From: a virus
Taxonomy: Duplodnaviria > Heunggongvirae > Uroviricota > Caudoviricetes
Strand: one strand, 5' to 3'
DNA length: 56,715 nt
IMG/VR virus record: IMGVR_UViG_2622736468_000005
A model generated the notes under the pieces. It was not told the origin of the DNA, made no database searches, and worked only from the letters and a program-made list of their open reading frames with translations. Shown piece after piece: positions 1,296 through 49,777 of this stretch; the first letter of the stretch is position 1; every line of letters starts with the position of its first letter. A program made the position numbers and the translations under genes.

Positions 1296-1964
1296 ATGGT
1301 GAAATTAATGAAAAAAAACACAGATGATGGGGCTAAAATTTACACACCACTTACCCTAAAGCTTTATGACTGGTGGGTTTTGGGAGTATCAAATCGGCTT
1401 GCATGGGGATGTCCTACAAAGGAACACCTTCTTCCACACTTTCTGGAACATTTAGGTAACAACCATCTGGATATTGGTGTTGGAACTGGGTTTTACCTTA
1501 CTCACGTACCTGAGAGTAGTCTGATATCTTTAATGGATTTGAACGAAGCTAGCCTGAACGCGGCATCTACAAGGGCTGGGGAATCAAAAATTAAACATAA
1601 AATTAGCCATGATGTTTTTGAACCTTATCCCGCGGCGTTACATGGTCAATTTGATTCCATTTCCATGTTTTACCTTCTTCACTGCCTGCCTGGAAATATA
1701 TCTACAAAAAGCTGTGTAATACGCAATGCGGCGCAGGCCTTAACTGACGATGGAACTCTATACGGAGCCACAATTCTTGGCGATGGAGTTGTGCACAATA
1801 GCTTCGGTCAAAAACTGATGCGCATTTACAATCAGAAAGGCATCTTTTCAAACACAAAAGATTCCGAAGAAGGCTTAACACATATACTCTCAGAGCATTT
1901 CGAGAATGTTAAAACCAAGGTTCAAGGTACTGTAGTAATGTTTTCCGCTTCAGGGAAAAAATAG
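1296..1964 (+). CDS. class I SAM-dependent methyltransferase (moron; substrate unknown)
   Basis: 222-aa ORF; glycine-rich motif I LDIGVGTGFY typical of Rossmann-fold SAM methyltransferases; gene is AT-rich relative to flanking tail genes and on the opposite strand. Confidence 0.6.
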   Translation: MVKLMKKNTDDGAKIYTPLTLKLYDWWVLGVSNRLAWGCPTKEHLLPHFLEHLGNNHLDIGVGTGFYLTHVPESSLISLMDLNEASLNAASTRAGESKIKHKISHDVFEPYPAALHGQFDSISMFYLLHCLPGNISTKSCVIRNAAQALTDDGTLYGATILGDGVVHNSFGQKLMRIYNQKGIFSNTKDSEEGLTHILSEHFENVKTKVQGTVVMFSASGKK

Positions 1965-1970
1965 CATCCA

Positions 1971-2187
1971 ACCGCAGCACGTTCTTGCTTAAGACGTGCT
2001 GCGGCATAATCCCAATGATTACTCCCTGACAGGGTTCGTAGGCCACTCAATATCAGGTGCAGTTGATGTATCAACACGGTTCAGCAACACCCGATACTTT
2101 TTCCAGGCTTCCAGCAATGAGGTTTCTTCCTCCGTTGCGATTTCCAGATCTACAGCATCCTGAAGTGGCGCAATATGCTCACTGGCT
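1971..2187. repeat. direct repeat copy 2 (3' end of intact tfa plus terminator hairpin)
   Basis: Matches 920..1135; perfect hairpin ccgcagcacg(ttcttgcttaaga)cgtgctgcgg immediately after tfa stop. Confidence 0.8.
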
Positions 2188-2603
2188 ACCTGCATCAGGC
2201 TGTTTTTTGTTTCTTCCGCCTCCCGGATCCGGAACAGTTTTTCTGCTTCCGTATCCTTCACCCAGGCTGTGCCGTTCCACTTCTGAAACTCCCCTTCCGG
2301 GGATAACCAGGTAACATTTTCCGGTAACGGACCGAGTTCAGAAATAAATAACGCGTCGCCGGAAGCCACGTCATAAACCGTTTTACCCCGATGATCTTCA
2401 ACGAGATGCCACGATGACTCATCACTGTTGAAAACGGCCACAAAGCCAGCCGGAATATCTGGCGGTGCAATATCGGTACTGTTTGCTGGCAGACCTGTAT
2501 GAGGCGGAATATATGCGTCACCTTCACCAATAAACTCATTGGTTCCAGCCAGTAGATTATAAATTTTTATGGTCCGTGATTGTTCACTCATTCTGAATAC
2601 CAT
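2019..2603 (-). CDS. tfa: tail fibre assembly protein (lambda Tfa-like chaperone)
   Basis: 194-aa ORF directly downstream of stf with overlapping start/stop (2603); position and size as in lambda stf-tfa. Confidence 0.8.
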
Positions 2604-5600
2604 TATGCAAGCCTCACAATATAGTTAAATGCGATGTTTTTGACGGTGTTTTCCGCGTTACCAGCAGCGTTAACGGTGATGGTGTGTCCATGTGAACCAA
2701 TCGCAACCGAGTGCGTATGCGCACCAATACCTACAGTATGTGCGTGTGCACCTGCGCTTGCAGCAGTACCCGATACAGAGTGCGTATGAGCGCCTGCAGA
2801 AGAAGTGTTAACACTGTATTTAGAATAATCAGGTGATCCACTTCCCGGAGCACCTTTGGTGCCACCTGAAACAAATGTTATCGAATGGGTATGTGCACCG
2901 GCTGAAGCAGCCGTACCGCTAACACTATGGGTATGCGCCCCGGTGTTATTCGTGGATTTAGTGCCGTAATCAAACGACGATGTGGTTTTCGTCCCCAAAT
3001 CCGTACTGGATGCGCTGGCGCTGTGGGTGTGCGATTTAATGCCGTCCTGTTCCTGAGACAATACGGCCCGACCACTGGCAGGTTTGCCCTTAATCGTCCA
3101 GCCACGCATATCAGGGATCACGCCTGACGGATAAGCGGCTGCAAGTTTCGGGTATGCAGATTTGTCAAAAGTCTGCCCCTGCATCAGGGCATAACCAGAC
3201 GGAACGGTATCTGATGGCCACGGGATTGGTGCGCCGACTGGGTAGCTTTCTGGTGGAAGATTTTTCGAGGTATAAACTTCTGCCCAGTCTTCCTCAAAAC
3301 CATAGCCATCTCTTGAGGAACGGTAGAACAGACCTCCATTTCTGTAATGCGCCTTCATCCGCAGGGTCCGGCAACTTCCGACTCCGGTATAGAAGTTAAC
3401 CAGAATATAGCTGTTGCCAGAGCGGGTGACATTGTAAGCGCCTGATTCGGCATTCCATGGAACGCCACCATCCGCATCGGCATATGTATCCGTTGCCCTT
3501 CTGGCAAAAGCAGCCACATGCGCGGCGGTTAAAGTAATATCTTTTGAACCATCAAACTCAACCCCAGAAACCCGTCTTGGCGTTTGCAGCTTTGTTGCTG
3601 TCAATGCGTTACCGTTCAGACTTGCAGACAGCTTGGTTCCAATAACCAGTTCGCCGGTTGCGTTATCAATAGCAAACGGTCTTAATGTATTCCATCCACC
3701 ATAAACATCACCTTGATTGGTAAGCAGCAGGTAAGTTTTAGCGCCATCATTACGCCATAATGCCCCATACTCCCCACCTATCATTCGAATCTGATTACCA
3801 CCACGCGCTACAATTTCGTCTGTGGCAAAAAGTTTTTTGCACGACAAGTTATCGTTAACGATTAACGAATGGGACTCATAAAAACCACGCCCACTCTTAA
3901 AATCAAGGATAACGTCCGCCGCGATACATTCAGTCGCCGGATTTGTTGCCCCAAACTTATAGGTCGTATCATTAACAACGAGATCAGCACCAGGTGCGGA
4001 TATTGACAGGCCATCTTCGATAAACGCAAAAACAGGGAAAGCAGCGCCATCAACATAGAACACAGAGCGCAAATCATCGCCCTTATTACTCATCATTATT
4101 GAGTGGATGGCTCGTTCATTGTTTTGATATTGCCAGAACATTCCATAAGCATAACGCCCCCTGTCAGTCCAGCCACCAGGCATAACAAATCCGTTAAACT
4201 CGCAGTTATTCATCGGATCGCCTGCGGTTCGCGTTGCCGTGGTGATAATGACCCTTGATGCCAGTTCGCTTACTGAGCCAGCAGAACGCATAACAACAAC
4301 AGGATAATATTTTCCAGATGTTGCACCTGCAGGAGCGTTAACCCGCACATAACGCATACCACGTTTATCAGCAAAGTCTGTTTTACTGACCGCGTTAATG
4401 TTGTTCAGGAAGCGTCCCTTATCGGGTATATCAGCGCCGTTCTGGTCTTTCTGCAGACGTTTCTCTGCATTGTCATAGGCTGCTTTTACTGCCTTTGGCG
4501 TTGCCGCCAGCGTTTCAGACGTGCTGTTGGTCGCGCTGCTGAGCTGTACTATCCCCTTTTTCGTCGTGCTCGCATCCTCAAGCGCCACGGCGGATGCAAT
4601 ATCCTCTGCCCGTTTTGCCGCTGTCTCGGCGCGCGTTGCCGCGGATTCCGCCGTACTTTTGCTCTGAGCTGCCGCCGTCGCACTGCCAGCTGCCTCTGTC
4701 GCCTTCGTGGATGCCGTCGTGGCGCTGCCCTTTGCTGCTGACGCCTGTCTGGTCGCCTCATCTTTTGAAGCAGACGCAGATGATGCCGATGACGCCGCCG
4801 AACTGGCGGACGATGCGGCAGCCGTTTTTGAGGATTCTGCGCTGGTTTCCGAGGCTTTCGCGTTCGTTTCGGATGTCTTCGCTGCCTCTTTTGAGGCCGC
4901 CGCATCCCGTGCTGAAGTGGCTGCTTCTGACGCTTTCGTGGTCGCGGTGGATGCAGAAGTGGCTGCTGATTGTTGTGACGCTGCCGCATTCGTTTCTGAC
5001 GTTTTCGCCGCACCGGCACTGGTAGCCGCCGCGCTTTTTGAGGACTCTGCAGCGGCAGCACTTTTTGATGTTTCAGTAGCCTTTGTTGATGCCGTTCCTG
5101 CGCTGGAAGACGCTGACTGAGCCGACATCGCGGCCTGCCCGGCTGATGTGCTGGCTGCACGTGCTGAGCCTGCAGCATCAGTCGCATGGGTTGCCGCCTC
5201 ACTGGCAGATATGCTGGCATCGCTGGCTGACTTCTTCGCGGCTGCCGTGTTCTGTGCCACCGCGGACGCGTTACGCGCCACCTCTTCCACCATCAGTTCA
5301 AAACGGCGCAGTGCCTCAGGACGGGCATCATCCTCCGTCATGGCACCGAGAAAATCATTCAGCGTACCTGGTCTGGAACCTTCATAGACGGTAATGGTCC
5401 CGGCATGTGAAGGCGGAAAACCTTCAACCAGCAGGGTGACGCTGTACTGACCATGCTCAACATCCATGCTGTAACGTCCGGCTTCATCCGGATTTTCAGA
5501 GGCCACCGTGTTCACCACCACCGTGCTGCTGGTTCGTCTGGCCTTCAGCACAATGGTGCAGTTCTGTACTGGTTTTCCTGTGCCATCTTTAAGCACGCCA

Positions 5601-5629
5601 GAAATTTTTACTGTCATACTTTCCACCAA
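2603..5629 (-). CDS. stf: side tail fibre protein (lambda Stf-like)
   Basis: 1008-aa ORF; N-terminus [26 protein letters not shown]... and C-terminus ...[31 protein letters not shown] match lambda Stf as I recall it; central Ala/Ser/Thr-rich low-complexity region. Confidence 0.85.
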
Positions 5630-5767
5630 TAAAAAAAGCCCGCAGCAGTGACGCTACGGGCTTCAGGACAGTGTAACTTTACGTTTCCTCAAATGCAGTT
5701 CACCCCATAAGGTGGATGAACCTGCGTATCATAACAATATTTACAGAAGATAAATCGGCGTCTGTTG

Positions 5768-6367
5768 TCAGAAACGGTATCCGATACCAACAATAAATGC
5801 ATCCGTTCGCCAGTCGCCACTACCGGAACCTTCATAAGCAAGGTCAACGGCCACGGATTCGGTCGGGTTAAACTGCACGCCAGCTCCCCACGCCAGAGAC
5901 GTGTTGCTGTGGCGACCGTCATCACTTCCGGTCAGCACGTCGTGCGTTTTCCCCTTGTTGTCAGTTACGCGGAGATAATCCCCGGAGAAAGTCGACACAC
6001 GGCTGTAAGCCACACCCGCCATCGAATACGCGCTGAACCATTCATTCACGCGTACAGACGGCCCCGCCATCACGCTGAACCAGCGGTTACGCACGGAATC
6101 TTCATGCCAGCGGGTATCGCTGTAGCGCGTTTTTTGCTCATCCTCAGCATTGGCATAACTGAAGGACGTAATCAGCCCCAGCGCGTCCGTAAACTCATAA
6201 CGGTATTTCACGTTAATCCCGTTCAGATCATCACTACCGGGAACGTTCGTCGAGGCATGGAGATACCCCGCGCTCAGCGTGGACTGATGTTCTGCTGCAC
6301 TCGCTGGCGTAGCAGCGGCGACCTGCCAGACTACTGCGGACAAAATAACAGCACATAATTTACGCAT
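5768..6367 (-). CDS. lom: Lom/Ail/PagC-family outer membrane beta-barrel protein
   Basis: 199-aa ORF with signal peptide (AAATPASA-AE), ends in aromatic residue (GYRF); located between J and stf as in lambda. Confidence 0.8.
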   Translation of the reverse strand: MRKLCAVILSAVVWQVAAATPASAAEHQSTLSAGYLHASTNVPGSDDLNGINVKYRYEFTDALGLITSFSYANAEDEQKTRYSDTRWHEDSVRNRWFSVMAGPSVRVNEWFSAYSMAGVAYSRVSTFSGDYLRVTDNKGKTHDVLTGSDDGRHSNTSLAWGAGVQFNPTESVAVDLAYEGSGSGDWRTDAFIVGIGYRF

Positions 6368-6434
6368 AATTACCTCTCGCTTTTCTGCAATAAAAAAGGC
6401 GCCATTTCTGGCGCCCGTATCTGGGTTATAAAAT

Positions 6435-9400
6435 TCAGCTAATCGTGATGCCTGCAGTGGCTTTCTTCATCACCACAACCAGCAAATCGCTGATACTTGC
6501 TGTGGGATACCAGTTATTTACCAGCCATGCTGACACCGAAAACTCCAGTGTCATGTGACCGTGACCGGCAGGCATATCAATAACACCACTGTAAATCAGC
6601 GTATTATCCAGCGCGGTACGGTTATAAATTTCAGCACCGTTTTTCCGCACTATCAGACGGCATGAGGAGTAAATATCAGTATGCTCTTTCTCATGTTTAG
6701 CGCCGCTGAATGCCACCGCCGGAATAACAATCTGCCGGTCAAACGGCTGATCGTCATAAACCCTGACGGTAATGGTTCCTGATGGCCACCGCTCCGGTGC
6801 ACGGGAGTCCCGGGGGAAAGCTTTGCCCACTGTTTTAACGAGATCGCCTTCAATCTGGTTCGCGGACAATTTTCCCAGAACCCGACAGTTCTCGTTAATC
6901 GTGACGTTGTTGAGCGTCCCGGAGTTCGCATTCACGTTACCGCTGATATCGGCATTTTTCGCCGTCAGCCGCCCGTCCGGTGTCAGGGAAAATGCCGGAG
7001 GATTACCGCCGCTGGTAATGGTGGGAGCCGTCAGATATTTCAGGAACACTTCATTCATAAATATCTGATCGCCCTGACCAACAAACATCGGCTTTGTGTT
7101 GCCATTCGCAGGATTAATCATCGCAATCCTGTCTGCCGCCAGCAGCACCTGACTCTGCATTCCTGCTGGCGTATTCTCAATACCGGCACCGATACCCGCA
7201 ATATAAAGGCGTCCGTCCTGCATCTGCTGCAGTTTCACGGCCCACATGCTGTTCAGGTTATTATTTGTATCAACCTGAACTTTCTGTATCTGCTGGATTG
7301 CCGCACTCTGATTTTCCAGTTTTTTATTGACGGTCTGCGTGATTTCATTGCTGACATTCGTAATGGACGTCCTGATTTCAGCCAGGTCCGGCGCAAGCTG
7401 ACCGTTATCAATCTGCGTCCACAGCTCCTGGGCCAGATGTGTTTTCCCGATTTCTCCTTTGAAAAAATCCAGGTAACCTTCCGCATCATCGCTCGCCCGA
7501 CCGACAGCCTCCACGAATGCCGATTTGCCAACAGTATTCACACTGCGGATATAAAAATAATAATCATGGCCCGGCTTGATATTGATACTGGCAGCTATCC
7601 AGTACAGCGCCGAGCCAAGATAGCGGGCTGCGGTTTCAACCTGCCTGATATCCGCAATCCGCTTTTCTGAGAACCAGAACTCAAACTGTACCGTCGGATC
7701 ATAAACGGCAAGATACGGCGTGGCGGTTATCTGAAAATAGCCCGGCGTCAGCTCAATCCGCGACGGCGCTGCCGGTGCGGCAATCCGGAAGGTGGTGGTG
7801 GCAGGTTCACCCTGCTGGCCATAGCTGTTTATCGCCCGCACCGTCAGGGTGTATTCCCCGAGCGGCAGGCCGCTGAAACGGTGCTCCGTGTCTGCGGTGA
7901 TGGCGGTGGTCACCAGTCTGGCATCCGTTCCCTTACCACTGGTCAGGCGCAGACTGAAGCGCACACCCTTCACCACCCGCGGCGTGTCCCATTTCGCCTG
8001 CGCCAGATACTGGCCGTCAGCTGCGCTCACCTCCACCGTCAGGTGCTGCACTGCCGGTGGGATGACGCTGTTCAGGGAACCTGACTGCGGCTCAAAGCGG
8101 GCACCGTTATCCACGATGGCTTCTTTTTCCGGTACGTGCTGCACCGCCGTGATGGCAAAGGTGCCGTCCGTGTTTTCCCGGACGGAGACACAGCGGAACA
8201 GGCGACGGCGCAGTGACGGCAGGGAGAGTCCCCACACCCCGTATGTCTCCACACCATCAGGCAGGGTACTGACCTGTATCCGGTCCGGCGCGGGGTGTTC
8301 GGTGATGTCCACACTCACCGGCTTACCGCTGCCGTTAATCAGGTTCACCGTGGCGGCACCGGTCTCCGGAAGTGTCACTTCACGGTCCAGCGTCAGGGTG
8401 CGGGTGGCAGCATCAATGGACAGGACACGTCCGCCGGTCAGGGTCCCGGCATAGTCGTTATCACAGATTTCAATGATGTCACCGGGTGTGTGCCGCAGCC
8501 CCTGAGACCCGAGCGTGAAATCCACCGTCTGCGTTTCCAGCAGTTCGGTCTTTATCACCCACAGTCCGGCACGGTGGGCCTGACCGCGGCTGGTACAGCC
8601 GAACGCGTCCATCTTCAGCAGGTTGCGTCCGTAGCGCAGTATGGCTTCCGGGTCTTCCACCAGTTCCGTGGAGGTCTGCCAGCCGTTCTGCGGGTCGGTG
8701 TAATTCACCTCCACCGCCGTGTGCCGGTCCTTCAGGGCACTGAAGCTGTAGCGGAATCCCACGCCGTTATCATCCACCACCACATCGCTGTTGGTGTACG
8801 GCCACACCACATCCGACGGGCGGTCCTGAACGAACGTCAGCGTCTGACCGTTCCATACCGGCATACAGCGCATCGCAGAGCAGAAATCACTGAGAACGTC
8901 CCACGCCTTACGCTGTTGTGCCAGGTACGCATTAAAGGTCATCCGCGGCTCGGTCCCCCCGAAACCATCCGGGACCGTCTGATCGCAGTACTGCCCGATG
9001 GCATACAGCGCCCACTTGTCCACATCCGCCGCCCCCAGACGTTTTCCCATGCCGTAGCGCGGGTGAGTCAGCATGTCCCACAGGCACCAGGCCGGGTTGT
9101 TGCTGTATGCCGGTTTCAGACTGCCGTCCCAGATACCACTGTACGTGCGTTTTTCCGGGTCATAGTTTGACGGCACCTGGATGATGCGACCGCGGATATG
9201 GTAGTTCACCGTCATCTGCTGGCCGCCGAACTGCTCCGCATCCACCTGCAGCCCCACAATGGCCGTGTTCGGGTAGCACTGTTTCACATCGATGATTTCG
9301 GTGTATGACGACCACAGCGTCTTATTCTGCAGCTGGTCCGTGGTGCTGTCCGCCGTCTCCCTGACCATCCGGATGTTAAAGGGCCGGGGAGGCAGATTAT

Positions 9401-9908
9401 CCAGAATCACCGAGGCCAGGAACTGTGAGGTGGTCTTGCCGTTAATGGTGACGTCCTTTTCCGTCACCCAGCGGCCATTACGCTGTAACTGAATCAGAAT
9501 CCGGACAGAGGAAGGATTACGGTCGCCCTTTGACGTGGTCTGCACCAGTGACTGCACCCCGAAGGTAACCCGCAGGCGGTCAATGTTCGCGGACGTAATG
9601 GTGCGCGTCACCGGTTTTGCCTTCGTCACTTCCACGCCCAGTCCGGTTTCAGCTCCGGAGGACTCAAAGCCTTCCGGTGGTGTCTGCTCCTGCTCCCCGG
9701 CGCGCCAGACCGCCGTCACACCGTGTATCACGGGATTGCCGTCCGTGTCCGTCAGTGGGGTTTTGTTCACCAGAATACTCTGCAGTCCCTTCACCGGACC
9801 TTCTATCGGTCCCTCACCAATCGCATCAATCACACTCATCATCTGCGTGGATTTGAGATTATCCTTCGCCTCACGAGGCGTGTGTGCCTTACCGCCACCT
9901 TTTCCCAT
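6435..9908 (-). CDS. J: tail tip host-specificity protein J
   Basis: 1157-aa ORF; long N-terminal and internal stretches collinear with lambda gpJ (e.g. [22 protein letters not shown]..., [25 protein letters not shown]...). Confidence 0.9.
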
Positions 9909-10016
9909 ACAGCCTTCCCCTGAATAAATTAACCGCCACTTGCCATTCCGTACAGAAGTCGGATATCCTTCGCCCGAAAAGCATGAAACACATTTCTGCC
10001 ATGCTAAAGAGAAACC

Positions 10017-10048
10017 CCGGTATCAGCAGATACCGGGGTTTTCTTTCA
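10017..10048 (+). terminator. intrinsic terminator-like hairpin (ccccggtatc-agca-gataccgggg + T-run) in I-J intergenic region
   Basis: Perfect 10-bp stem followed by ttttcttt on plus strand; weaker in minus orientation. Confidence 0.45.
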
Positions 10049-10147
10049 TGCCCACCGATAATCCTGTTGGTTAAAACCGGTAATGGCATAAAAATTCTGA
10101 ATATCTTCACATTTTCACACACTGACTGTGGCGCTTATAATTTCGCT

Positions 10148-10246
10148 GCGTTAGTGTTTTTTTGCCCGAGTAACAAAAACAACTCCTTAACATTGATCTT
10201 CATTTGTCTGTCCCCGCAGCTCCGCGATCACTGCGGGATTTTTTTA
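10148..10246 (+). ncRNA. candidate small RNA antisense to the tail operon (promoter at 10114..10141, terminator at 10212..10245)
   Basis: -35 TTCACA / 16 bp / -10 TATAAT on plus strand, then about 100 nt with no good ORF, ending in hairpin cccgcag...ctgcggg + T7. Confidence 0.3.
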
Positions 10247-10250
10247 TGTT

Positions 10251-10931
10251 TTATCCCTGTCGCCCGATAACCACGACCTTTCCGCCCCCGCCTTCATCAC
10301 GGGTGCTGATGTCCTGGGATATACGGCGGGAGCCAACCAGCATTTCCCCGTAAGGCACCGGCATCGGGTTCCCCTGGGCAATCATGTTATCCAGCGAGGA
10401 AAAGTACGTGTTCTGTCTGCCGTTATCCGTTGCGCGGTAATCCGGTGTTTTTGCCTTCGGGGCCAGCATCTGGGCCACTCCGCCCAGAATCATGCTGGCT
10501 CCAAGTGAAAACAGCATCGTGGTGGCAGAAAAACCACCGGCTGCCAGGGCTGAACCCCATAACGCCATTGATGCCCCGGCAGTGAAGAAAGAGCCCACGA
10601 TGGCTGCCGCCCCCAGCACAATCTGCAGTCCACCCTTTCCGGCCCCGGCCAGTCGCGGCACAATGTGGATGACCGTTCCCTCACCCAGCTGTTCGTGAAG
10701 ACGGGCGTACACCGCCTCCGGTGCCGTGTCATAACCGGCAATACGTATCTGGTACCAGCCTTCGTTCATCTGACGGCGAAAGCCCGGCATCTGCATCGAC
10801 AGGGCGCGAATGGCTTCCGCTGCCGTGTTCACATACAGGCTGAGGCGGCGGCCAAATCGTTGTAAATCCCCGTGAAGGCAGATGCGTGCCAGTGGCGGTG
10901 ACGCCAGACTGAATGCGTTCGTCGTTGCCAT
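10251..10931 (-). CDS. I: tail assembly protein I
   Basis: 226-aa ORF; N-terminus ...LASPPLARICLHGDLQRFGRR... and glycine-rich hydrophobic middle match lambda gpI. Confidence 0.85.
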   Translation of the reverse strand: MATTNAFSLASPPLARICLHGDLQRFGRRLSLYVNTAAEAIRALSMQMPGFRRQMNEGWYQIRIAGYDTAPEAVYARLHEQLGEGTVIHIVPRLAGAGKGGLQIVLGAAAIVGSFFTAGASMALWGSALAAGGFSATTMLFSLGASMILGGVAQMLAPKAKTPDYRATDNGRQNTYFSSLDNMIAQGNPMPVPYGEMLVGSRRISQDISTRDEGGGGKVVVIGRQG

Positions 10932-11572
10932 TTTTCGGAATACCTCTCCCGTTTACTCAGTTGTTCAGGCAGATGGTGAAGCAGCTCACCGTTGCCGCAG
11001 TAAATGGCGGCATGGTTCGGTACCGAAGCACCAAAGCAGCACAGCAGAATATCGCCCGCCTGTGCAGAGGACAGGGGCACCCGGTAAAAGCCGGTGACCG
11101 CCATATTGTCCAGGTACAGGTTCTGGCCGTTGCGCCACCAGTCATCCTCGCGATGAAAATCCGGCATATCAATTCCCGCCAGATGGTATGCATCCCGGAA
11201 CAGCGTGTAACAGTCCGTCACCCCGTGCTCAAAGCGCCGTCCTGTCAGATGTGGCACACAGCGGAATTTATGAATTTCCCCCCGGCAGACCAGCCACCAG
11301 GGCAGTGCGCTTTTTATCTGCAGCCGCCGGTCAGCCTCGCTCAGCCAGGGCAGCTCACCGGGATGACTGTGGACCAGTGCCACAATCTCCCCCTGCATCT
11401 CTGCCCGCAGCCAGTCTTCCGGTGCGATACGAAAATACGCCTCCGGCTCTGCGGAAATATTCACACAAGGGATATACCGCTCCCCCTCCGGCGTGCTTAT
11501 CACGAAGCCGCACGACTCCGCAGGCGCACACCGCCGGGCATGTGCCAGAATCGCTGATTCAGTCTGTGTCAT
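10829..11572 (-). CDS. K: tail assembly protein K (JAB/MPN + NlpC/P60-like)
   Basis: 247-aa ORF; HSHP metal-binding motif and Cys-containing C-terminal half as in lambda gpK; 103-bp overlap with I suggests 3' end uncertain. Confidence 0.8.
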   Translation of the reverse strand: MTQTESAILAHARRCAPAESCGFVISTPEGERYIPCVNISAEPEAYFRIAPEDWLRAEMQGEIVALVHSHPGELPWLSEADRRLQIKSALPWWLVCRGEIHKFRCVPHLTGRRFEHGVTDCYTLFRDAYHLAGIDMPDFHREDDWWRNGQNLYLDNMAVTGFYRVPLSSAQAGDILLCCFGASVPNHAAIYCGNGELLHHLPEQLSKRERYSEKWQRRTHSVWRHRHWHASAFTGIYNDLAAASACM

Positions 11573-11577
11573 TGGAT

Positions 11578-12275
11578 TTACTGCGAAAGTTTGTTAATGG
11601 AAAGGAAACCGCCAAAATTAGCCACCATGCCGCGCATCTCACACCCGCGCATGCACTTGCTGCATCTGTCCTTACGGATATCCGTGGTGGGGTTGTCGAA
11701 CTCATCCGCCACCGCAGGACCGTTATACCCGCATTCATCTCCCCGGTAATCCCACATACAGGTGTTCGCCAGCATGATGCGACCAGGAAACAGCGCCCCG
11801 TCCGTCTCGGTCGGTGTCGCCAGCACAAACGAGGCCGTCATGGCCGTCAGCTCTGACATCTGCTCCACCACCCAGCGGTCGCTCAGCTCCTGCTCCGGGT
11901 CTGCCTCCGGATTGCCCGCAACGAAATTCACCGCATCCAGAAAACGCCCATACACCCGACGGCGGACCACCGTGGCCCCACCAGACTCTGCAGGTCTTCC
12001 GCCATCCCGGTGACCAGACCGAACAGATTGGACACCGTCAGCAACGGTCTGGCACTGCTGCCCTTCCCGCTCATCTGAAAACCGCTGCCGTCAATCGGGT
12101 ATGCCTGATATTGCCGCCCCTGCCAGGTGACCGGCTCCCCTTTTTCATTCAGCTCATTACAGAAAAAATACCGCTCACCGCCCTGCACCGTCAGGTCAAT
12201 TTCCCAGAGCACCACCCGCGGTGACTGCTCTGATTTAACCGACTCGTTCAGACTTTCTTCGTGGATCTCCTGCAT
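11578..12275 (-). pseudogene. L: tail tip protein L, interrupted by a 1-bp frameshift (track ORFs 11928..12275 and 11578..11970)
   Basis: N-terminal ORF matches lambda gpL up to ...GMAEDLQSLVG, C-terminal ORF matches the rest (VRRRVYGRFLDAVNF...FGGFLSINKLSQ); frames differ by one base at a C4 run at 11976..11979. Confidence 0.8.
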
Positions 12276-12284
12276 AAACTTCCA

Positions 12285-12473
12285 CCCATAAAAAAGGGGC
12301 GCAATGCGCCCCGAACAAAAAAGTTCAATTAAAAATCGAAAGCAATGAAGGTAATAAAATGAAAATTAAATCGGCTAATTGCCGTTTGCAGTGACCGGTG
12401 AAAACTATACTTTCACCGATACAGACCATCTGTGAGGGCAGATGGTCTGTATTTGTTCACTCACCAGTTATCA
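12285..12473 (-). ncRNA. candidate 3'UTR-derived sRNA (IpeX-like) downstream of prophage porin gene
   Basis: About 190-nt untranslated segment after porin stop containing a 12-bp perfect hairpin (acagaccatctg...cagatggtctgt) and ending in a strong intrinsic terminator (ggggcgca-ttg-cgcccc + T-run). Confidence 0.3.
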
Positions 12474-13610
12474 TCAGAACTGATAAGTCATACCAACGGC
12501 AACGATATTATCCGTTGCAACACCTGCATCCTGGGTAAACTGACTTTCATCAATCAGATTGATTTTATAATCAACATAGGTGGACATATTTTTATTAAAA
12601 TAATATGTTGTACCCACATCAATATATTTAACCAGATCCTGATTGCCATAGTTTTTACCACCGACAATTATATCCTGAGCACGAGACTGCAGGAACGCCA
12701 GAGATGGACGCAAACCGAAATCAAACTGATACTGTAATACCGCTTCAAAGTTCTGGGCTTTATCTGCCACCCCTTTGTCGCCAAAGGTCGTCATATTCTG
12801 AGTCTCAGAATATATTGTCGCCAGATAAATGTTGTTGGCATCATATTTAAGCCCGGTGCCCCACATCTCAGCGTGTTTACCTTTTGCAACACTGCCGGAA
12901 TCAACAACTGTTTGAGTACCGTTTACTGTTTGCGTACCATTCAGGCCTTTCACCTGATTGTTGGTACGGTCTGCGTTAGTATATGCAGCCACGATACCAA
13001 AACCTTCATATTCATAACTGGCAGAGAAACCATAACCATCACCATTAGCTTCCTGAAGGTCATCACGTTCATTCTTGCCCTGATACTGAGCTGCAAAATT
13101 CAGGCCATCAACAAGTCCAAAGAAATCAGTATTACGGTAAGTCGCCACACCAGAAGTACGGGCAGTCATGAAGTTATCGGTCTGAGTCCAGCCATCACCA
13201 CCAAACTCTGGTAATACGTCGGTATAAGCACCAACATCATACGCAATACCATAGTTACGACCATAATCAATGCTGCCAAAGTCACCGAACTTCAGACCTG
13301 CAAACGCCAGACGAGTCTTATTACCCGCAGCACCGTCTGATTCAGTTTTATTACCAGAGAACTGATATTCCCACTGACCAAAACCGGTCAGTTGATCATT
13401 AATCTGAGTTTCACCTTTAAAGCCCAGACGTGCATATGTCCGATCACCATCATTTCCCTTATCGCTGGAGAAATAATGCAGTGCCGTTACACGTCCATAC
13501 AGATCAAGCTTATTGCTATCTTTGTTATATACTTCCGCAGCCTGCGCACCAGCTGCAAAAATCACAGCCGCAGCCACGGCTGAAAGTGCCACTGTCATTT
13601 TTTTCATCAT
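12474..13610 (-). CDS. general bacterial porin of the OmpC/OmpF/PhoE family (prophage moron)
   Basis: 378-aa ORF with signal peptide ([12 protein letters not shown]), porin signature stretches ([23 protein letters not shown]-terminal ...VAVGMTYQF); AT-rich flanks; inserted between tail genes L and M. Confidence 0.85.
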
Positions 13611-13699
13611 TTGTTCCTTATTTTAATTGAACTATTCATGAATTGGGCTGTCATGAACGCCAGTTAAAATATTTTACTACAAATTCTGAATTCAATTCA

Positions 13700-13735
13700 T
13701 TAAATGCAACAAAATGTAAACAAGAGACAAGTTTC
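13700..13735 (-). promoter_or_regulatory. putative OmpR-binding box in porin promoter region
   Basis: Minus-strand sequence TGAAACTTGTCTCTTGTTTACATTTTGTTGCATTT resembles OmpR sites of ompC/ompF (GTTTACATTTTG, TGAAAC). Confidence 0.35.
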
Positions 13736-13812
13736 ACACTTTCTGTTAAGACGACAAAAAATAATTTTGCATGAAACAATAAAGATTAATTTATAATACA
13801 ATTCTTGGAAAT

Positions 13813-14154
13813 CTATGAGATTACCTGCTCAATCGTGCAACTGAAATCACTGTACCGGGCATTATCCGTGACACTCCACTCACGGCACACAACCCTCACC
13901 GTTCGGTTATGTTTCGGCGGTCGCCACAAAAAGGCACGGTAACCACCATGCCACGATAAAAACTCTTCCAGCCATCGCCGGGTCGCCTCATCCGTCACCC
14001 GGAACACCGCCTGAAACGTCTTCAGTCGGGCATTAAGTCCCGTCGGGCGGCGCTGTTCATAACCGTCACCAAACCGTACCCTCGCCACCGACGGTTTCTC
14101 ACTCACCTGCATCCCTTCACGCGGGACCAGATGCAGCGTTTTTATCTCAGCCAC
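13813..14154 (-). CDS. M: minor tail protein M
   Basis: 113-aa ORF with VRFGDGYEQR...GLNA motif as in lambda gpM; position between H and L. Confidence 0.8.
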   Translation of the reverse strand: MAEIKTLHLVPREGMQVSEKPSVARVRFGDGYEQRRPTGLNARLKTFQAVFRVTDEATRRWLEEFLSWHGGYRAFLWRPPKHNRTVRVVCREWSVTDNARYSDFSCTIEQVIS

Positions 14155-17100
14155 TCAGCATTCCTCCGTCACGTCGCATGGACAGCATCACCGCCTGCAC
14201 CCGCTGGTCAATCAGTTGCACAAGGCTGCCCGCAGCTTCCGGCCCTATCTGGCCATTAGTCCCGTCATTCTGAATGGCGATATGGTAGACCGGGGAATAC
14301 ACCAGACCCGCACTGCCGTTCATACTGCCCACCGCTCGCACACCCAGCGAGCCATCCGCCGCCCGGGTCAGGGGCATAATGGCTTCAGGACCGGCCTCCC
14401 CCATAAGTCCCGCCCCTTTTGCAAAGGCAAAGTACGTGGGCGTATCCACAATACTGTTGCTGTACGCACTCAGGTTTGCCGAGGTAAACACGCCGCCTTT
14501 TGCATTGGCCACCGCCCCGCCCAACCAGTCACCAATGCTGCCGAGAAATCCTCCTGCACCGGACATACTATTTGCCGCCGTCCTGATCCCGTTGACAATC
14601 GCGGCATTCATAAGAACTTTTGATATTTCCTGCAGCACTGATGAGGCCCAGCTGCGCCATTCCACTTTATTCCCGTTCAGCACCTCCGTGATGTTATTCA
14701 CCATCCCTGAGATACCCTCCGTCGCAAGTTGTGCTGCCTGTGAGGCGTAATCGGACGCATTATCCACCCAGTTACTGAACCCCTCCTGCAGCCCTTTCTG
14801 CCAGTCCGCACGCTGCACATCCGATTCGGCATAAAAGGCTGCCTGGTCCTTAAGGCGTTCGCTCAGATACTGCGCGTTCTGTGCCCGTGCCTGTCTGTAA
14901 AAATCCTCACTGATATCCCCGGTCTGATACTGAGACTGAAGGTCCGCATCCTTCTGGCGGAAGCTGTCGCGGATCTGCTGCAACTCCCGCATGCGTTCCC
15001 TGGCTCGTTCTCCCTGCCCGTACCCCAGCAGTTCGGCTTCATTTGATGCACGCGCAGCCACATTATCATTCTTCAGGGTCTCTTCCCGGTACCGTAACTG
15101 CTCCCGGATTTTTTGCTGGTCAATCAGGGCCGCATTGCGCAGCAGTTCCTGCTTCTGTATCTCCGTCAGGGTTTTCAGTTCGCCCTGCGCTGTCTGGTAC
15201 TTCAGCTTCGCCAGTTCTGTATTCTGACCCGCCAGTGCCAGTTGCTCTTTCTGCTGCTTCAGTAGCCGGGAAAAACTGTCTTCCGCTTTTTCCGTCTCTG
15301 ATTTTCCACCCCGGGATTTGGGTTTATTCGCCTCGTTATTGCGCCAGGCTTCCAGGGCATTACTGATATAACGTTGTCTCGCCTCCTGATACGGATCACC
15401 CACAAAACCGAGGTCATCCGCCGCATACCCCAGCCGGGCACGCTCTTTTTCTTCCCCTTTCAGTCTGGACAGGGCCAGCTCACGCTCTGTTTTTGTCAGG
15501 GCACTCTGCTGTTTATCATCCAGAGTGGCCTGTGGCAGCCGTAACGGCACATTCACCAGTCCCTGCCGCTGCTGAAGCAGTTCATTACCCTGCCCCAGCA
15601 GACGGTTGAATTCCGTATGCTGACCGTTCATAACCAGCATGGACTGGTACACCTTATTCTGCTCTGCCGCCTGCTGACGAATTAACGCCACACGACGGTC
15701 TTCCAGCCCGGCAAGCACATCCTGAATGGACTGCGCTTTTTCCTGCATCTGTGCCAGACGGGACTGCTCAACGGCAAGCTGCTCTGTTGCCTGAGCAAGC
15801 CCTTCCGTTACGGTCTTCACCGAGGTCAGATGGTTTATCATGAATCCGTCACCGGTCGTCCAGCCCGGGTTCGCCAGAACATACTGATATCCTGCGATTT
15901 TTTCCTGCAGGGATTTCACCCGACTGGCCTGTTCATCAATCAGCCGGTTCTGCTCTGTCAGCGCCGCCCGTGTTCGTCCTTCATTATCTGAGGCTTCAGG
16001 CAAAGACATTGACGGCGTTTTATGCGCGATTTCATCTATCGTCAGTGCATACTGGCGCGCAGACTCCCTGGCCTGCTCCTGATTCTGGTACAGCGTGTAC
16101 CATGCTGCAGCCCCCAGCATCACCAGTCCGGGTACGCCACCAACCAGCCCCAGCGCACCGCTCATCAGACGTGAGCCCACCGCCGTTGTACTGTTCAGCG
16201 CATTCTGGGCGGCGCTTCTGGCAGCAATATTTCTGTTCAGGCGTTCCTGTGTGGCCGCCAGACGGGCCTCTGCAGCAATCTGCATCTCCGTCCCGCGGGC
16301 TGCCGCCACGGCCTGCTGAGCACGGTACACGGCTGCCCTTGCCCGCGCCGTGGCAATCTGCGTTCCCCTGAACTGTGCTTCCGCCAGTGCAACTTCATTA
16401 CGTGCAGCCGTCACAAGTCCTGCCGTGGCAGACATCGCTCCGGAGGCCATATTGCCAAAGTACCGGGCCACCCCGACGGCAACCAGCGCACCCACAGCTG
16501 TTGCCACATTATCAATCTGTCCGGCAACACCGTTCAGCATGCCGGAGAGCGTTTTTGTCACCCCGCTGGCCTCATTCGCACCGCCCACCCAGGCCATAAA
16601 GGCGTTTTCCACCTTTGTGATCCCGTCAGAGACCGTTTCTGGCATGGCGGCATATTCATCACGCAATGTCCCCAGCTGGCTGATTAACGCGGGCACGACT
16701 TTATCCGCCGTCAGTTGACCATCGTCCGCCATCGCCTTCAGATCTTTACGGGCCACGCCCATGCCTGCAGCCAGTGCACGAATGATCCGGTCACCACTTT
16801 CATTGACCGAATTAAATTCCTCACCGCGCAACACACCCTGTGCCAGCGCCTGGCTGAACTGGGTGATCACCGAACCCGCCTCAGCCGTACTGGCACCGGA
16901 GATTTTCAGCCCCGTGGAAATGGCCTCCGTCACCTTCAGTACATCACCGGCACTGTAACCATATTCACGCATCGAGGCAGCCGAACGGGCAAACAGGGCC
17001 GCATTATCCGAAAAAGCGGTACCTGTCCGCTGACTGATATCCATCAGCACTTTCTGTGATGACGAAAATTCATCGGATGACTGTGATGCCTGTTTCAGAC

Positions 17101-17389
17101 GGGCATTCACGGAACTCCACTCATCAGCCAGTGAAATCAGGTGTCCGGTGGCAAAGGCACCGGCAAATGCGCCAGCCATTCCGACAGCCGAAGCGCGGAT
17201 TTCCGTCAACTGGCTGTTCAGTTCTGCCAGGGCACGTCGCTGCTCCCGGGCTGCCGCAGCGGCCTGACGCCCGCCATTCTGCAGGGTCCGGTAATATTCA
17301 CTGCCCATACGGGAAGCCCGCTGGATCTCCGACTGGAATGACTGTGAATTTGCCGAAATTTTGATAATCAGTTCACGTAACGTCGCCAT
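14147..17389 (-). CDS. H: tail tape measure protein H
   Basis: 1080-aa ORF, coiled-coil rich, C-terminus ...NDGTNGQIGPEAA...RRDGGMLSG matches lambda gpH end. Confidence 0.85.
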   Translation of the reverse strand: MATLRELIIKISANSQSFQSEIQRASRMGSEYYRTLQNGGRQAAAAAREQRRALAELNSQLTEIRASAVGMAGAFAGAFATGHLISLADEWSSVNARLKQASQSSDEFSSSQKVLMDISQRTGTAFSDNAALFARSAASMREYGYSAGDVLKVTEAISTGLKISGASTAEAGSVITQFSQALAQGVLRGEEFNSVNESGDRIIRALAAGMGVARKDLKAMADDGQLTADKVVPALISQLGTLRDEYAAMPETVSDGITKVENAFMAWVGGANEASGVTKTLSGMLNGVAGQIDNVATAVGALVAVGVARYFGNMASGAMSATAGLVTAARNEVALAEAQFRGTQIATARARAAVYRAQQAVAAARGTEMQIAAEARLAATQERLNRNIAARSAAQNALNSTTAVGSRLMSGALGLVGGVPGLVMLGAAAWYTLYQNQEQARESARQYALTIDEIAHKTPSMSLPEASDNEGRTRAALTEQNRLIDEQASRVKSLQEKIAGYQYVLANPGWTTGDGFMINHLTSVKTVTEGLAQATEQLAVEQSRLAQMQEKAQSIQDVLAGLEDRRVALIRQQAAEQNKVYQSMLVMNGQHTEFNRLLGQGNELLQQRQGLVNVPLRLPQATLDDKQQSALTKTERELALSRLKGEEKERARLGYAADDLGFVGDPYQEARQRYISNALEAWRNNEANKPKSRGGKSETEKAEDSFSRLLKQQKEQLALAGQNTELAKLKYQTAQGELKTLTEIQKQELLRNAALIDQQKIREQLRYREETLKNDNVAARASNEAELLGYGQGERARERMRELQQIRDSFRQKDADLQSQYQTGDISEDFYRQARAQNAQYLSERLKDQAAFYAESDVQRADWQKGLQEGFSNWVDNASDYASQAAQLATEGISGMVNNITEVLNGNKVEWRSWASSVLQEISKVLMNAAIVNGIRTAANSMSGAGGFLGSIGDWLGGAVANAKGGVFTSANLSAYSNSIVDTPTYFAFAKGAGLMGEAGPEAIMPLTRAADGSLGVRAVGSMNGSAGLVYSPVYHIAIQNDGTNGQIGPEAAGSLVQLIDQRVQAVMLSMRRDGGMLSG

Positions 17390-17436: not shown

Positions 17437-17750
17437 TCATGACTGTGCTGCAAAGCTCAGCGCGTCTTCCAGCGCCGCAAACGGATCCACCTCCGGCTTA
17501 TCCTCATCCTCGCCCCAGCAGAGCATGGCGTCCTTCAGTGCAACATTCATCCCCTGTGCCCCGAAAACCGCTTTCACGATCTGTGCATTACGGATATCCC
17601 GCGCTCATCACCCAGCGGGGACACCCTGTCAAACTCCATCCACATCATCGCCTCGCTCGCACTCAGGCTGTGCCGCAGTTCGGATAAGGTGCGCCCCAGA
17701 CGGAGCGCAAGTCGCATCAGAAAGCGAATTTCCGGGCGGGCTACTTTTTT
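17437..17750 (-). CDS. T: tail assembly chaperone T portion of the G-T fusion (reached by -1 frameshift), itself interrupted by an extra 1-bp frameshift near 17598..17600
   Basis: Reading in -1 frame from the slippery site gives KKVARPEIRFLMRLALRLGRTLSELRHSLSASEAMMWMEFDRVSPLGDERG then a premature stop at 17574..17576; a third frame continues QIVKAVFGAQGMNVALKDAMLCWGEDEDKPEVDPFAALEDALSFAAQS-stop. Confidence 0.55.
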
Positions 17751-18115
17751 CTGGCCGACTCTGCATCAGCGATCAGTTCCAGTGCCTGACGCAGCAACCG
17801 GGCATGTACCGGACCATAGACGGCCAGCACCTGCTCACGGTCGTCCGGAGTGAACACCCGTTGCAGGTCAGTATCACACAGGACATCGCAGAACAGCGTC
17901 ACATCCGCTTCCAGGTTACGGCGGGTTTTCGCCACCACCGACAGGGTATCGTCATCCTCTCCATCACCATTGAGCACTTCCTGCCACAGATACCAGGCCT
18001 CTGCCGAAGGCTCCCGCAGCACCACGCTGACATTTCCCCATTCCGGCACCTTCACCGTTTTATGACGGAACCCTGACAGTCTGGCCAGCGCCAGTGTTTT
18101 CAGATCTTTTGCCAT
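17741..18115 (-). CDS. G: tail assembly chaperone G
   Basis: 124-aa ORF between V and H ending ...AESARKK-stop with slippery heptamer at its 3' end. Confidence 0.7.
   Translation of the reverse strand: MAKDLKTLALARLSGFRHKTVKVPEWGNVSVVLREPSAEAWYLWQEVLNGDGEDDDTLSVVAKTRRNLEADVTLFCDVLCDTDLQRVFTPDDREQVLAVYGPVHARLLRQALELIADAESARKK
17744..17750 (-). promoter_or_regulatory. programmed -1 ribosomal frameshift site (A AAA AAG) for the G-T fusion
   Basis: Minus-strand AGA AAA AAG TAG at end of G; classic X XXY YYZ heptamer; -1 frame is open and encodes a gpT-like sequence. Confidence 0.65.
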
Positions 18116-30375: not shown

Positions 30376-30480
30376 GGATATTTATCAGGATTTATCGGTT
30401 TCTGAGCCCTGGATATGTTTATCAGTTCCAGCCTGTTGCCTCAGGCTGCTAACAGGTCAATACAATCATGAGGATTATTT

Positions 30481-30753
30481 ATGGACAATAACACCATTTC
30501 TCTACAGGAGTTGCTCGACAGCATTTCCAGGCTTCGGGAAGACGTGAATACCCTTACCGTCGCCTTCTCATATCTGGCATTCTCAATTCCAAGGGAACAG
30601 ATGCAATCAACGCTGGCATCAATCCAGTTTGAATCATGCAATCCCAAATGGTCTCAGGAACAACAAGACTCTTTCAGGCGGCTTGCTGTATTACTGGATG
30701 AAAAATATGCTGGTAAAATTACCATTTCGGCGGACTCTTCAGAGAACCCGTAA
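30481..30753 (+). CDS. hypothetical protein (opposite-strand gene inside lysis cassette)
   Basis: 90-aa ORF with GAGGA RBS 7 nt upstream; convergent with 30719..31063. Confidence 0.4.
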   Translation: MDNNTISLQELLDSISRLREDVNTLTVAFSYLAFSIPREQMQSTLASIQFESCNPKWSQEQQDSFRRLAVLLDEKYAGKITISADSSENP

Positions 30754-31063
30754 TTATTCCCGGTAGTTTTCCTCTGTAGGTTATCAACACATCCTGCGCC
30801 TCTAAAATTACGGGGCGCTTTTCCGGCGACTGCTCATCCCCTTCACATAACCCGGCAGCAACATCCAGGAAGACCTGTCTGATGCTCCTTCTGGCTGCTG
30901 CCTCATAAAACTCCAGCGCGGCACCTTCAACACGGTCCAGCGAGATGTCCAGGTCAAAAATTTCACCGTCAAAGCGTTTTTTGTCCCGTAACGCTAAAGT
31001 TACCGTAACTTTATTCTCAAAATTGCGGATCCCTTTCACAATCAGTTCATAGTTTTGAGTCAT
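30719..31063 (-). CDS. hypothetical protein between holin and endolysin
   Basis: 114-aa ORF with GGAGAG RBS; starts 4 nt after holin stop. Confidence 0.4.
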   Translation of the reverse strand: MTQNYELIVKGIRNFENKVTVTLALRDKKRFDGEIFDLDISLDRVEGAALEFYEAAARRSIRQVFLDVAAGLCEGDEQSPEKRPVILEAQDVLITYRGKLPGIITGSLKSPPKW

Positions 31064-31067
31064 TGAA

Positions 31068-31283
31068 TTACTCTCCCCGTGCCGCCTTACGACGGTCCTC
31101 TCTGATTTTGAAATACAGGTTAGTCAGATATGTCAGCAGCCCAAACAGCAGACTCCCCAGCACGCCTATTGCCGCCCACTGAGACGGGGAAACCCTGTCC
31201 AGCAACTGCAGGAACCAGTAGCCCGTTCCCACCGCTGACGTGGTGTATGACACACCTGTTGTGATTTTTTCCATCTGGTACAT
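31068..31283 (-). CDS. S: pinholin (phage 21 S-like class II holin)
   Basis: Start taken at Met27 of the track ORF 31068..31361 ([10 protein letters not shown]..., dual-start motif); two TM segments; C-terminus ...[22 protein letters not shown] matches S21. Confidence 0.8.
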
Positions 31284-31433
31284 ACCCCGTCTCCCGTTAT
31301 CCGGAAGCTGACAACAATAAAAAAAGCCACCAGTTAAGTACTGATGGCTCTGATAACTCATGCAGGCGTCTCAGACGACCCACTGACACTACCGGTGAGT
31401 TTAACGATACCTTCCATTTGACTGGCTCACTTT

Positions 31434-33302
31434 TTATGATGATGCCGGTGCATTTATCTCCAGCACCAGACTTTCTATCTCAACGCCATACGCTGCATTT
31501 TTTGTAACATCCGTCAGCGTCAGCGCATTCAGCCCCAGTGTCAGACTGTCTTTTATGACCTGGAATGCCGGGCCAACCAGTCCATTCAGTTTCGGAGTAA
31601 CCGTGGCACTGCCGGCGGTGAACACCAGCTCCAGCGTCTGCCAGTCGTTACTGTAATTCCCGAACTCGCCCAACTTTGTGTTTCCGGCTTTCTTGTGATG
31701 CATCAGATTCAGTTTGCCGTCTGTGGTCTGGGTGAAGAACGACATCAGGAACGGGTTACCAGTCCCGGTCATCGCCACGACGTCAGGTAACGCTACATCG
31801 GTATACAGATAAATTCCCAGACCGAACTGGTTGTTGGTCAGTGCGCCTGACAGTCGAAACTTACAGCTCAGTCTGCCACCCCGTGTCAGCAGGGAGACTG
31901 CGTCATCCACCGGGCGCGTCAGGGACCAGGCTTTATTGCTCTGCTTGGCGATCTTAAATACACCATCTGACAACTGAATTCCGCCATTCTTAATGCTCCA
32001 GCCCTGCGCAGCAGCATCTCCGGCTGTCGGCAACAGGGAGATTGTGCGTACGGATGCATCTTCAGACGGCCCCGATGGCGTGTCGCCGCCGGGCGAGGGT
32101 TTGATTTCCGGTGCCTTACCACTGATGAAGGCTGAGGTGCGACCGGCTACGTTCAGAATAGCAGTTGCCATACGATCCGGAATAATGCTCCTGCGCGCCC
32201 ATGAACTGAAATGTGTCGGGCGGTTTGATGATACCTGGTTTCCATTCGTTCTCGATGCCGCACCGTAATATCCTGATGCCGGAATATCCGGATCTTCTGC
32301 CGGTGCGTTAGTGGCGGTATTGACGCCGTTACCGTCTGTCATGAAGGGCACAAAATAAACGCCCTCACTCTCCCTGTTTTTATACCCTCCGTACACGGTG
32401 TCGTACTGGGTAGCGTATGTATTTTTCCAGTAATACGTCGTGTCACCACAAATCCACGGCACATCTGCAGCACTGCCACCATGACACTGCGCGTTAAACA
32501 CAGTGAGGTCAGCACGAAACTGCTTCAGCATGGCTGTAAACAGCGCAGGTTGCTGTGCGTAGGTGGCGGCGCTCATGTCAAACTCTCCCTGCATCCAGCA
32601 CACCGCCAGCAACACATTTTTCGGGTTCTTCTGTAATGCAGCTTTAGTGCGCGCAATCAGGTCCTGATATAACGGTTTACCCACACCCCAGCGTGCCGAA
32701 TCCTGGCTGGCCCCCGTGTCCGCACTGAATGTCCCCTCCGCGCCCTGGGTGAATGCCGAACCACCACGACAGCATGGTACCAGCAGGATCCCCGCGTTAT
32801 TCGGGATATACGGAAGCAGTTTTTTGGCAATATGTAAGCCCTGGCCGACACAGCCGTACTGCCCTTTGCTCAGGTCTGCCTTCGGATGATTCAGCGTACT
32901 CATATCCTGCACATCATGCAGGCAGTGGTCGGCCGGAATAATATCGTTATATCTGCAGGCAGCCCCACCCGGCGTCACTGTACTGCGGCGCGCCAGCTGT
33001 TTAATGCGCGGATCCGGAGCATCGTATGAATCCGGCAGCGGAAGCCCTTCACCGTAAGCCATGGCATTGGACTGCCCGGCCAGTACGATGACGTAGTACC
33101 ACTCCGGCTCAGTTGCACCACTGACGACCACATCACCTTCTGCTGCAATCGCCTGCATCAGGGTATAAGGGGTTATGGCCACCGGACTACCAAACGGCTG
33201 CCAGCCCTCTTTCAGTTTATGTGTCAGCTTTTCCGCAAGATCTGACGGCGACGCCGCCCTGACAACATCATAGTGTTTAAATGCCATGGTTCTTTCCACC
33301 AT
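31434..33302 (-). CDS. prophage-encoded sialate O-acetylesterase-like protein (NanS-p / YjhS family, SGNH-type)
   Basis: 622-aa ORF with VIVLAGQSNAMAYG esterase motif; located between tRNA/Q region and lysis genes, as nanS-p is in Stx-type prophages. Confidence 0.65.
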   Translation of the reverse strand: MVERTMAFKHYDVVRAASPSDLAEKLTHKLKEGWQPFGSPVAITPYTLMQAIAAEGDVVVSGATEPEWYYVIVLAGQSNAMAYGEGLPLPDSYDAPDPRIKQLARRSTVTPGGAACRYNDIIPADHCLHDVQDMSTLNHPKADLSKGQYGCVGQGLHIAKKLLPYIPNNAGILLVPCCRGGSAFTQGAEGTFSADTGASQDSARWGVGKPLYQDLIARTKAALQKNPKNVLLAVCWMQGEFDMSAATYAQQPALFTAMLKQFRADLTVFNAQCHGGSAADVPWICGDTTYYWKNTYATQYDTVYGGYKNRESEGVYFVPFMTDGNGVNTATNAPAEDPDIPASGYYGAASRTNGNQVSSNRPTHFSSWARRSIIPDRMATAILNVAGRTSAFISGKAPEIKPSPGGDTPSGPSEDASVRTISLLPTAGDAAAQGWSIKNGGIQLSDGVFKIAKQSNKAWSLTRPVDDAVSLLTRGGRLSCKFRLSGALTNNQFGLGIYLYTDVALPDVVAMTGTGNPFLMSFFTQTTDGKLNLMHHKKAGNTKLGEFGNYSNDWQTLELVFTAGSATVTPKLNGLVGPAFQVIKDSLTLGLNALTLTDVTKNAAYGVEIESLVLEINAPASS

Positions 33303-34829: not shown

Positions 34830-34906
34830 TGGACCGCCATCGGGGACTTGAACCCCGCGCAGCCAGCTTCGAAGGCTGGCGCTCTATCCCGATGAGCTAA
34901 TGGCGG
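34830..34906 (-). tRNA. tRNA-Arg (anticodon read as TCG)
   Basis: 77-nt cloverleaf on minus strand: acceptor CCGCCAT/ATGGCGG, D-arm GCTCATCGGGATAGAGC, anticodon loop CTTCGAA, T-arm CGGGGTTCAAGTCCCCG, 3' TCCA. Confidence 0.7.
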
Positions 34907-40735: not shown

Positions 40736-40865
40736 CAACAGAATCCTTCCAGATAAATAGCACTCCCCTGTTCGGGGTCCATCCCTCTTCTCCCTGCGCG
40801 CTACTTAAGTATTTTTGATTCTATTCTGGCACCGTCCAAAACTTCAAACACGTTGAAAATAAAAA

Positions 40866-43750: not shown

Positions 43751-43757
43751 TTACTCC

Positions 43758-49519: not shown

Positions 49520-49777
49520 GAATCAACTCCGATGCATTTGGTGTGTTAGCCTTGAATCCAACAGGTAAGCCGTCGGTTGGATTCGGGTAAATATCAGGCC
49601 GGAGTTCATGAGGTGTAACCTCGAAATTCGTTACTTCAGCAACACGTAATGCTTTTTCAGGGCTGAATCTTTCATAGCCCCCAGCACTCGACTTACATGC
49701 ACCTGAGATAAACCCGTTAGCTTCCCAAACTGTAGCTGGGTGATATGTTTCTCTTTTAAATAGTCTCTTAAGTTCAT
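49503..49777 (-). CDS. Cro-like / YdaS-like HTH protein, apparently frameshifted at a C5 run at 49678..49682
   Basis: Frame 1: MNLRDYLKEKHITQLQFGKLTGLSQVHVSRVLG...; adding one G gives ...VLGGYERFSPEKALRVAEVTNFEVTPHELRPDIYP... with the expected HTH-then-LRPD layout; divergent from repressor gene. Confidence 0.45.

Follow-up and report, generated by a model that had tools for sequence, protein, structure and literature searches.

The window, by which we mean the whole stretch of 56,715 nucleotides that was analysed, is a lambdoid prophage whose integrase lies at the right end, adjoining ompW. On the minus strand, its genes follow the order terS, terL, a protease-capsid fusion, portal, head-tail connectors, V, G-T, H, M, a porin gene, L, K, I, J, Lom, a tail fibre gene and a gene for a tail fibre assembly protein. 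PHROG or annotation matches place H at 14147-17389, M at 13813-14154, K at 10829-11572, I at 10251-10832 and J at 6435-9908 (all minus strand), and gene L is found in the expected tail-tip module (M, L, K, I, J), with the porin gene interposed between M and L. This OmpC-like gene (12474-13610, minus strand; 377/378 aa, Pfam Porin_1, 474 bits) is followed on its 3' side by a terminator-like GC-hairpin and T-run at about 12290-12313. It looks like a moron and could alter the porin set of the host outer membrane. A porin gene between M and L is also present in 93 RefSeq complete E. coli genomes; a look-up of gpK returned 608 blocks, every one with an intact L and without the porin, and the sole match to the porin product was a 1.7-kb metagenome contig that ends before the L site. 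The prophage also carries two tRNA genes on the minus strand, at 34830-34906 and 34914-34989, as is typical of the late region in Stx-type lambdoid phages. One is a tRNA-Arg (anticodon TCG); the other, with a CAT anticodon, is called tRNA-Met by ARAGORN and tRNA-Ile in the RefSeq annotation of NCTC86.

Gene L extends over 11578..12275 on the minus strand and measures 698 bp in the window, against 699 bp in every intact homologue. Two ORFs share it. The N-terminal fragment (11928..12275, minus strand; 115 aa, ending ...GMAEDLQSLVGPRWSAVGCMGVFWMR*) consists of gpL-like residues 1 to about 101 plus some 14 codons read out of frame up to a TGA, and the C-terminal fragment (11578..11970, minus strand; 130 aa from a fortuitous GTG, beginning MVRRRVYGRFLDAVNF...) corresponds to gpL residues 103-232. 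The reading frame breaks after codon 101, at a G4 run on the minus strand (C4 on the plus strand) that occupies 11976..11979; the minus-strand text around the site is ctggtGGGGccacgg, within the longer context ...ctgcagagtctggtGGGGccacggtggtccgccgtcgg.... In an alignment with the intact 699-bp gene of NZ_CP180600.1, the only indel inside L is one G missing from this run, and the addition of one base at the run opens a 262-codon stop-to-stop frame that contains the 232-aa gene.

Both fragments belong to the same protein family. The PF05100 profile (Phage_tail_L, length 206) matches the N fragment over positions 3-74 and the C fragment over positions 75-206, with bit scores of 100.6 and 183.3 for a cut-off of 25, and PHROG 4199 (phrog_4199, 'minor tail protein') similarly covers 1-101 in the first fragment and 103-231 in the second. 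Once repaired, the 232-aa product aligns over residues 1-232 with residues 1-232 of PDB 8IYK chain L, without gaps (E = 3.8e-123). The alignment also indicates that all the cysteines in residues 170-215 of lambda gpL are conserved (ANTC, DEC, CSKC, GC). The C-terminal cysteines of gpL are reported to hold an iron-sulfur cluster (Tam et al. 2013). The window L thus shares with its lambda counterpart full-length collinearity, the cysteines and the H-M-(porin)-L-K-I-J gene order; it differs in that its frame is broken after codon 101, and the window differs from lambda in that an OmpC-like porin gene, together with a terminator of its own, stands between M and L. Apart from the broken frame, nothing that was tested sets this L apart from the lambda gpL family.

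A sequence-only reading of this DNA had proposed that a lambda-type L is divided here by a 1-bp frameshift in a C4/G4 run, that the two ORFs together make up gpL and that one added G joins them. Our results agree on each point: the same ORFs were recovered, their PF05100 matches are consecutive, the joined product aligns with 8IYK_L without a gap, the single-base repair restores the frame and, in the alignment to an intact homologue that this reading had called for, the missing G is the lone in-gene difference in length. Given the ORFs, the consecutive profile matches, the single-G indel and the gap-free joined product, the split is a true property of the sequence record, not a chance ORF pattern.

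The split is restricted to this record in all the collections that we searched. In 19 of 19 other homologous loci fetched, whose L genes are 91-96% identical and come from E. coli chromosomes and an Stx1 phage, the site is G5 and lies in an open 232-codon frame. That L might naturally be two genes here, the outcome that the sequence-only reading had itself named as a refutation, is therefore rejected, since a single 232-codon L is found at all 19 loci and L is one gene in each of the closest relatives. With an 81-bp probe spanning the site, matches were obtained in 2,492 RefSeq complete E. coli genomes, none of them at 100%, and all the matches listed cover 82 bp; the G4 allele had no match among the 5,426 genomes of this collection. 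In a collection of 15 billion proteins, the exact repaired L protein was found in 11 contigs and neither L fragment was found; exact-product look-ups of both fragments were also empty. Other structural genes are annotated as broken in related prophages: the portal gene of the NZ_CP189662.1 prophage (locus 30385-32969) is labelled 'frameshifted' and the tape measure gene of the NZ_CP180600.1 prophage (locus 1-1354) has an 'internal stop'. Damage to structural genes, be it real or artefactual, is frequent in such prophages.

The window was traced to a sequenced chromosome. Extracts of CP014197.1 that cover window positions 1435-14908, 10371-32956, 21434-43287 and 42823-56715 are 100.000% identical to it and align without gaps. 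The E. coli strain behind CP014197 is MRE600 (PMC12851939). Its genome was sequenced solely on a PacBio RS II instrument (P5-C3 chemistry); HGAP 2.0 served for the assembly and Quiver for the polishing, at 184x (PMC4825418). The genome paper mentions no short reads, the word 'Illumina' appearing 0 times in its text (PMC4825418). The best L-region matches among the 5,426 RefSeq complete E. coli genomes are at about 96-99%, and no part of the tail region had a 100% match in that collection. CP014197.1, a complete GenBank genome with the assembly record GCA_001542675.2, is absent from it, which would fit an exclusion from RefSeq on grounds of quality. Exact matches to the J protein product came from two assemblies only, CP014197.1 and GCA_901482365.1; a methyltransferase look-up gave 14,902 blocks, and neither assembly was among those returned, nor did either turn up with a 368-aa HTH protein taken from a start codon other than the one chosen by gene callers.

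The second assembly, GCA_901482365.1 (contig CABEEG010000004.1), contains the same prophage with the same ompW flank. From the style of its accession, we guess that it may be the NCTC 3000 PacBio assembly of NCTC 8164 (= MRE600, ATCC 29417); a literature search on GCA_901482365 and NCTC8164 returned nothing that identifies its strain, platform or independence. The two assemblies were compared base by base over window positions 1435-56715 (55.3 kb). The complete set of differences is six indels of 1 bp, a single substitution and, at an IS end, an indel of 7 bp. The window is one base short at six out of six 1-bp sites, and the missing base is always in a G/C homopolymer with a true run length of 4-7; A/T runs of at least three number 1663 in the window, versus 1219 for G/C. 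The substitution, at 52480, is a T in the window and a G in GCA_901482365.1, upstream of a gene for an 823-aa exonuclease, and the 7-bp indel, at 39390, coincides exactly with one end of the IS element: the window has TTACCAC there and GCA_901482365.1 lacks it. The host DNA past the integrase shows no difference over 8.6 kb, but only about 0.9 would be expected at the prophage rate, so that this agreement is uninformative.

At the L run (11976-79, plus strand), the window has C4 and the sister assembly C5, that is G5 on the coding strand, with identical flanks and 0 mismatches over 13.5 kb. The single uninterrupted frame that characterizes the gpL family is therefore broken in the window record and present in the sister assembly. 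Two other lesions of the same kind fall in T and terL. The first is a C3 at 17598..17600 (plus strand; C4 in both GCA_901482365.1 and NCTC86), which cuts short the T portion of the G-T tail chaperone, Phage_tail_T being called in the sister assembly but not in CP014197.1. The other is a G3 at 26564..26566 (plus strand; G4 in GCA_901482365.1, NCTC86 and NZ_CP189662.1), which leaves the terminase large subunit gene (26829..25169, minus strand) in two pieces of 101 and 452 aa. TerL is intact, at 553 aa, in every relative, including the NCTC86 prophage, which is 99.9% identical in the terL region; the terL split would be an artefact of the same class as the L split. The remaining indels are an intergenic run between terS and an HNH gene (27664..27669, plus strand; C6 in the window, C7 in GCA_901482365.1 and C8 in NCTC86), a run in or at the edge of a rem-like small gene (40765..40768, plus strand; C4, against C5 in both GCA_901482365.1 and NCTC86) and a run in or at the edge of a ydaS/cro-like gene of 91 aa (49678..49682, plus strand; C5, against C6 in GCA_901482365.1). 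Restoration of the bases gives full-length L, T and TerL; its effect on the ORFs is ambiguous for the rem-like and ydaS/cro-like genes, both of which are called in the sister assembly only. Accordingly, the gene calls of GCA_901482365.1 include L (232 aa), terL (553 aa) and T, all three of which are missing from the calls of CP014197.1.

Other lesions of the prophage are common to both assemblies. An IS3-family element inserted at about 38080-39390, with orfA at 38133-38459 and orfB at 38456-39346 (both plus strand), splits a DUF968 gene; the annotations of relatives label this element 'IS3 family transposase' and give it an 'AL1L pseudoknot' feature. At 48598, within a short direct-repeat array (CGTGAC...), 31 bp present in NCTC86 are deleted, which splits a 346-aa DnaT-like replication gene into ORFs 48570-49028 and 48013-48615 (minus strand). 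Because both are present in the two assemblies, the IS insertion is probably real, and the deletion is probably also a real lesion, one that would leave the prophage replication-defective. The homopolymer differences are thus assembly-specific, while the structural lesions are reproduced in the second assembly.

We consider that the L split is an uncorrected consensus error in CP014197.1 and not a real feature, with a probability of about 0.85. A G5 homopolymer would have been under-called by a single base, leaving G4 in the deposited assembly, and the prophage in the cell most probably carries an ordinary, intact 232-aa L of the lambda type; the split is thus most probably not biologically real. 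This view rests on the G5 run and the intact L seen when the prophage was assembled a second time, and on the excess of six one-directional G/C-run deletions over one substitution between the two copies. The sequence-only reading would have been overturned by reads in which the run is really G5; with the second assembly as a substitute for reads, this appears, in effect, to be the case. The error would lie in CP014197.1 rather than in GCA_901482365.1, and its likely cause would be the sequencing chemistry combined with the polishing. The consensus errors known from the PacBio RS II are systematic losses of one base, for the most part a G or a C, from homopolymers of about 4-6 nt; in mid- and high-GC genomes they survive even several-hundred-fold coverage and shorten the predicted proteins (PMC8574707). 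In one genome of ~3.2 Mb, 561 such deletions were left after three rounds of Quiver (PMC4888979), which amounts to about one per 6 kb, compared with about one per 9 kb in the window. The window shows the same signs: it disagrees at the L site with a second assembly (taken as independent and of the same clone), its G/C-run deletions are recurrent and go one way in one assembly (six of six), and it derives, according to the published methods, from long reads only, without short-read polishing (PMC4825418). As in the published cases, the clustered 1-bp deletions truncate predicted proteins; unlike them, the present case rests on a comparison of two assemblies and not on an alignment of short reads. 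An artefact of base methylation is unlikely, the MRE600 motifs (GATC, CCWGG and RCCGGY) overlapping, on inspection, none of the six sites. The broken L frame thus belongs to a well-documented class of sequencing artefact and reveals no new biology.

Could the frameshift nevertheless be real? The MRE600 stock that was sequenced may have lost one G by slippage, making L a pseudogene in a decaying cryptic prophage, and GCA_901482365.1 would then be a stock or sister isolate that has kept L intact. Slippage in a homopolymer is an ordinary way for a pseudogene to arise, the IS3-family insertion and the 31-bp deletion in both assemblies suggest a prophage that may already be defective and free to decay, and frameshifted genes are annotated in other prophages, as seen above for the portal in NZ_CP189662.1 and the tape measure in NZ_CP180600.1. 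Moreover, we infer the error in CP014197.1, and the strain, the platform and the independence of GCA_901482365.1 are presumed. By its location at ompW and its real damage (the IS3-family element and the 31-bp deletion), the window prophage indeed resembles the cryptic lambdoid prophages of E. coli; the difference is that the real lesions recur in the second assembly, whereas the L frameshift does not. More generally, the homopolymer lesions are never in both assemblies and the clearly real ones always are, and the G4 allele was found nowhere else, be it in the 2,492 matching genomes, the 19 loci or the 15-billion-protein collection. In repair-proficient E. coli, substitutions outnumber indels and slippage yields gains and losses alike, and two stocks of one strain are a handful of mutations apart genome-wide. 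The near-identical copies compared here differ by six single-base indels, all of them losses in the window, against one substitution in 55 kb. Because such a one-directional excess of indels is unlike mutation in repair-proficient E. coli, a real mutation in L is disfavoured and we regard it as unlikely. It is slightly less likely still that all six deletions are real, L, T, terL and regulatory genes of the MRE600 stock sequenced in 2016 having been silenced by repeated slippage in G/C runs after its divergence from the stock of the culture collection; this would imply either that indels arose by an unusual process concentrated in this region or that a functional prophage was strongly selected against in a laboratory strain in wide use.

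A different possibility is that the frames are joined during expression, full-length gpL being made by a -1 ribosomal frameshift or by transcriptional slippage on the G run, as for G-T of lambda. By inspection of the sequence, re-reading one G after GTG GGG does give the exact ...SLVGATVVRR... protein, and a genuine slippery site lies nearby: the end of the G gene (about 17741-17765, minus strand) reads ...GCC AGA AAA AAG TAG, in which A AAA AAG is a canonical -1 slippery heptamer. The likeness to lambda G-T is that L also has two overlapping tail-gene frames joinable by a -1 shift, but lambda G-T, and G-T in the window too, has a conserved heptamer and a two-frame architecture, and the L site has neither. 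It reads G GUG GGG CCA (ctg gtg ggg cca cgg), which is not an X XXY YYZ heptamer, and its run has only 4 G, while known transcriptional slippage tracts are far longer than four G. Furthermore, the split architecture exists in no homologue (19 of 19 loci have the single 232-codon frame and the 2,492 matching genomes gave no G4 match), and the same kind of 'frameshift' affects terL, T and an intergenic run of the window record. Programmed frameshifting at L, unconserved and lacking a slippery site, is therefore rejected as extremely improbable. The window thus has one true site of programmed frameshifting, in G-T, near the false frameshift in T.

The consensus error that we propose for L is of small biological importance and serves mainly as a practical warning on the MRE600 reference. 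Were the frameshifts real, the prophage could make neither tails nor packaged heads. MRE600 is a standard strain for the preparation of ribosomes and tRNA, and in this region its reference appears to contain approximately one uncorrected homopolymer deletion per 9 kb. Such deletions create false pseudogenes, here L, T, terL and possibly others, and CP014197.1 needs short-read polishing before it is used for proteomics, for comparisons of gene content or for deciding whether its prophages are intact.
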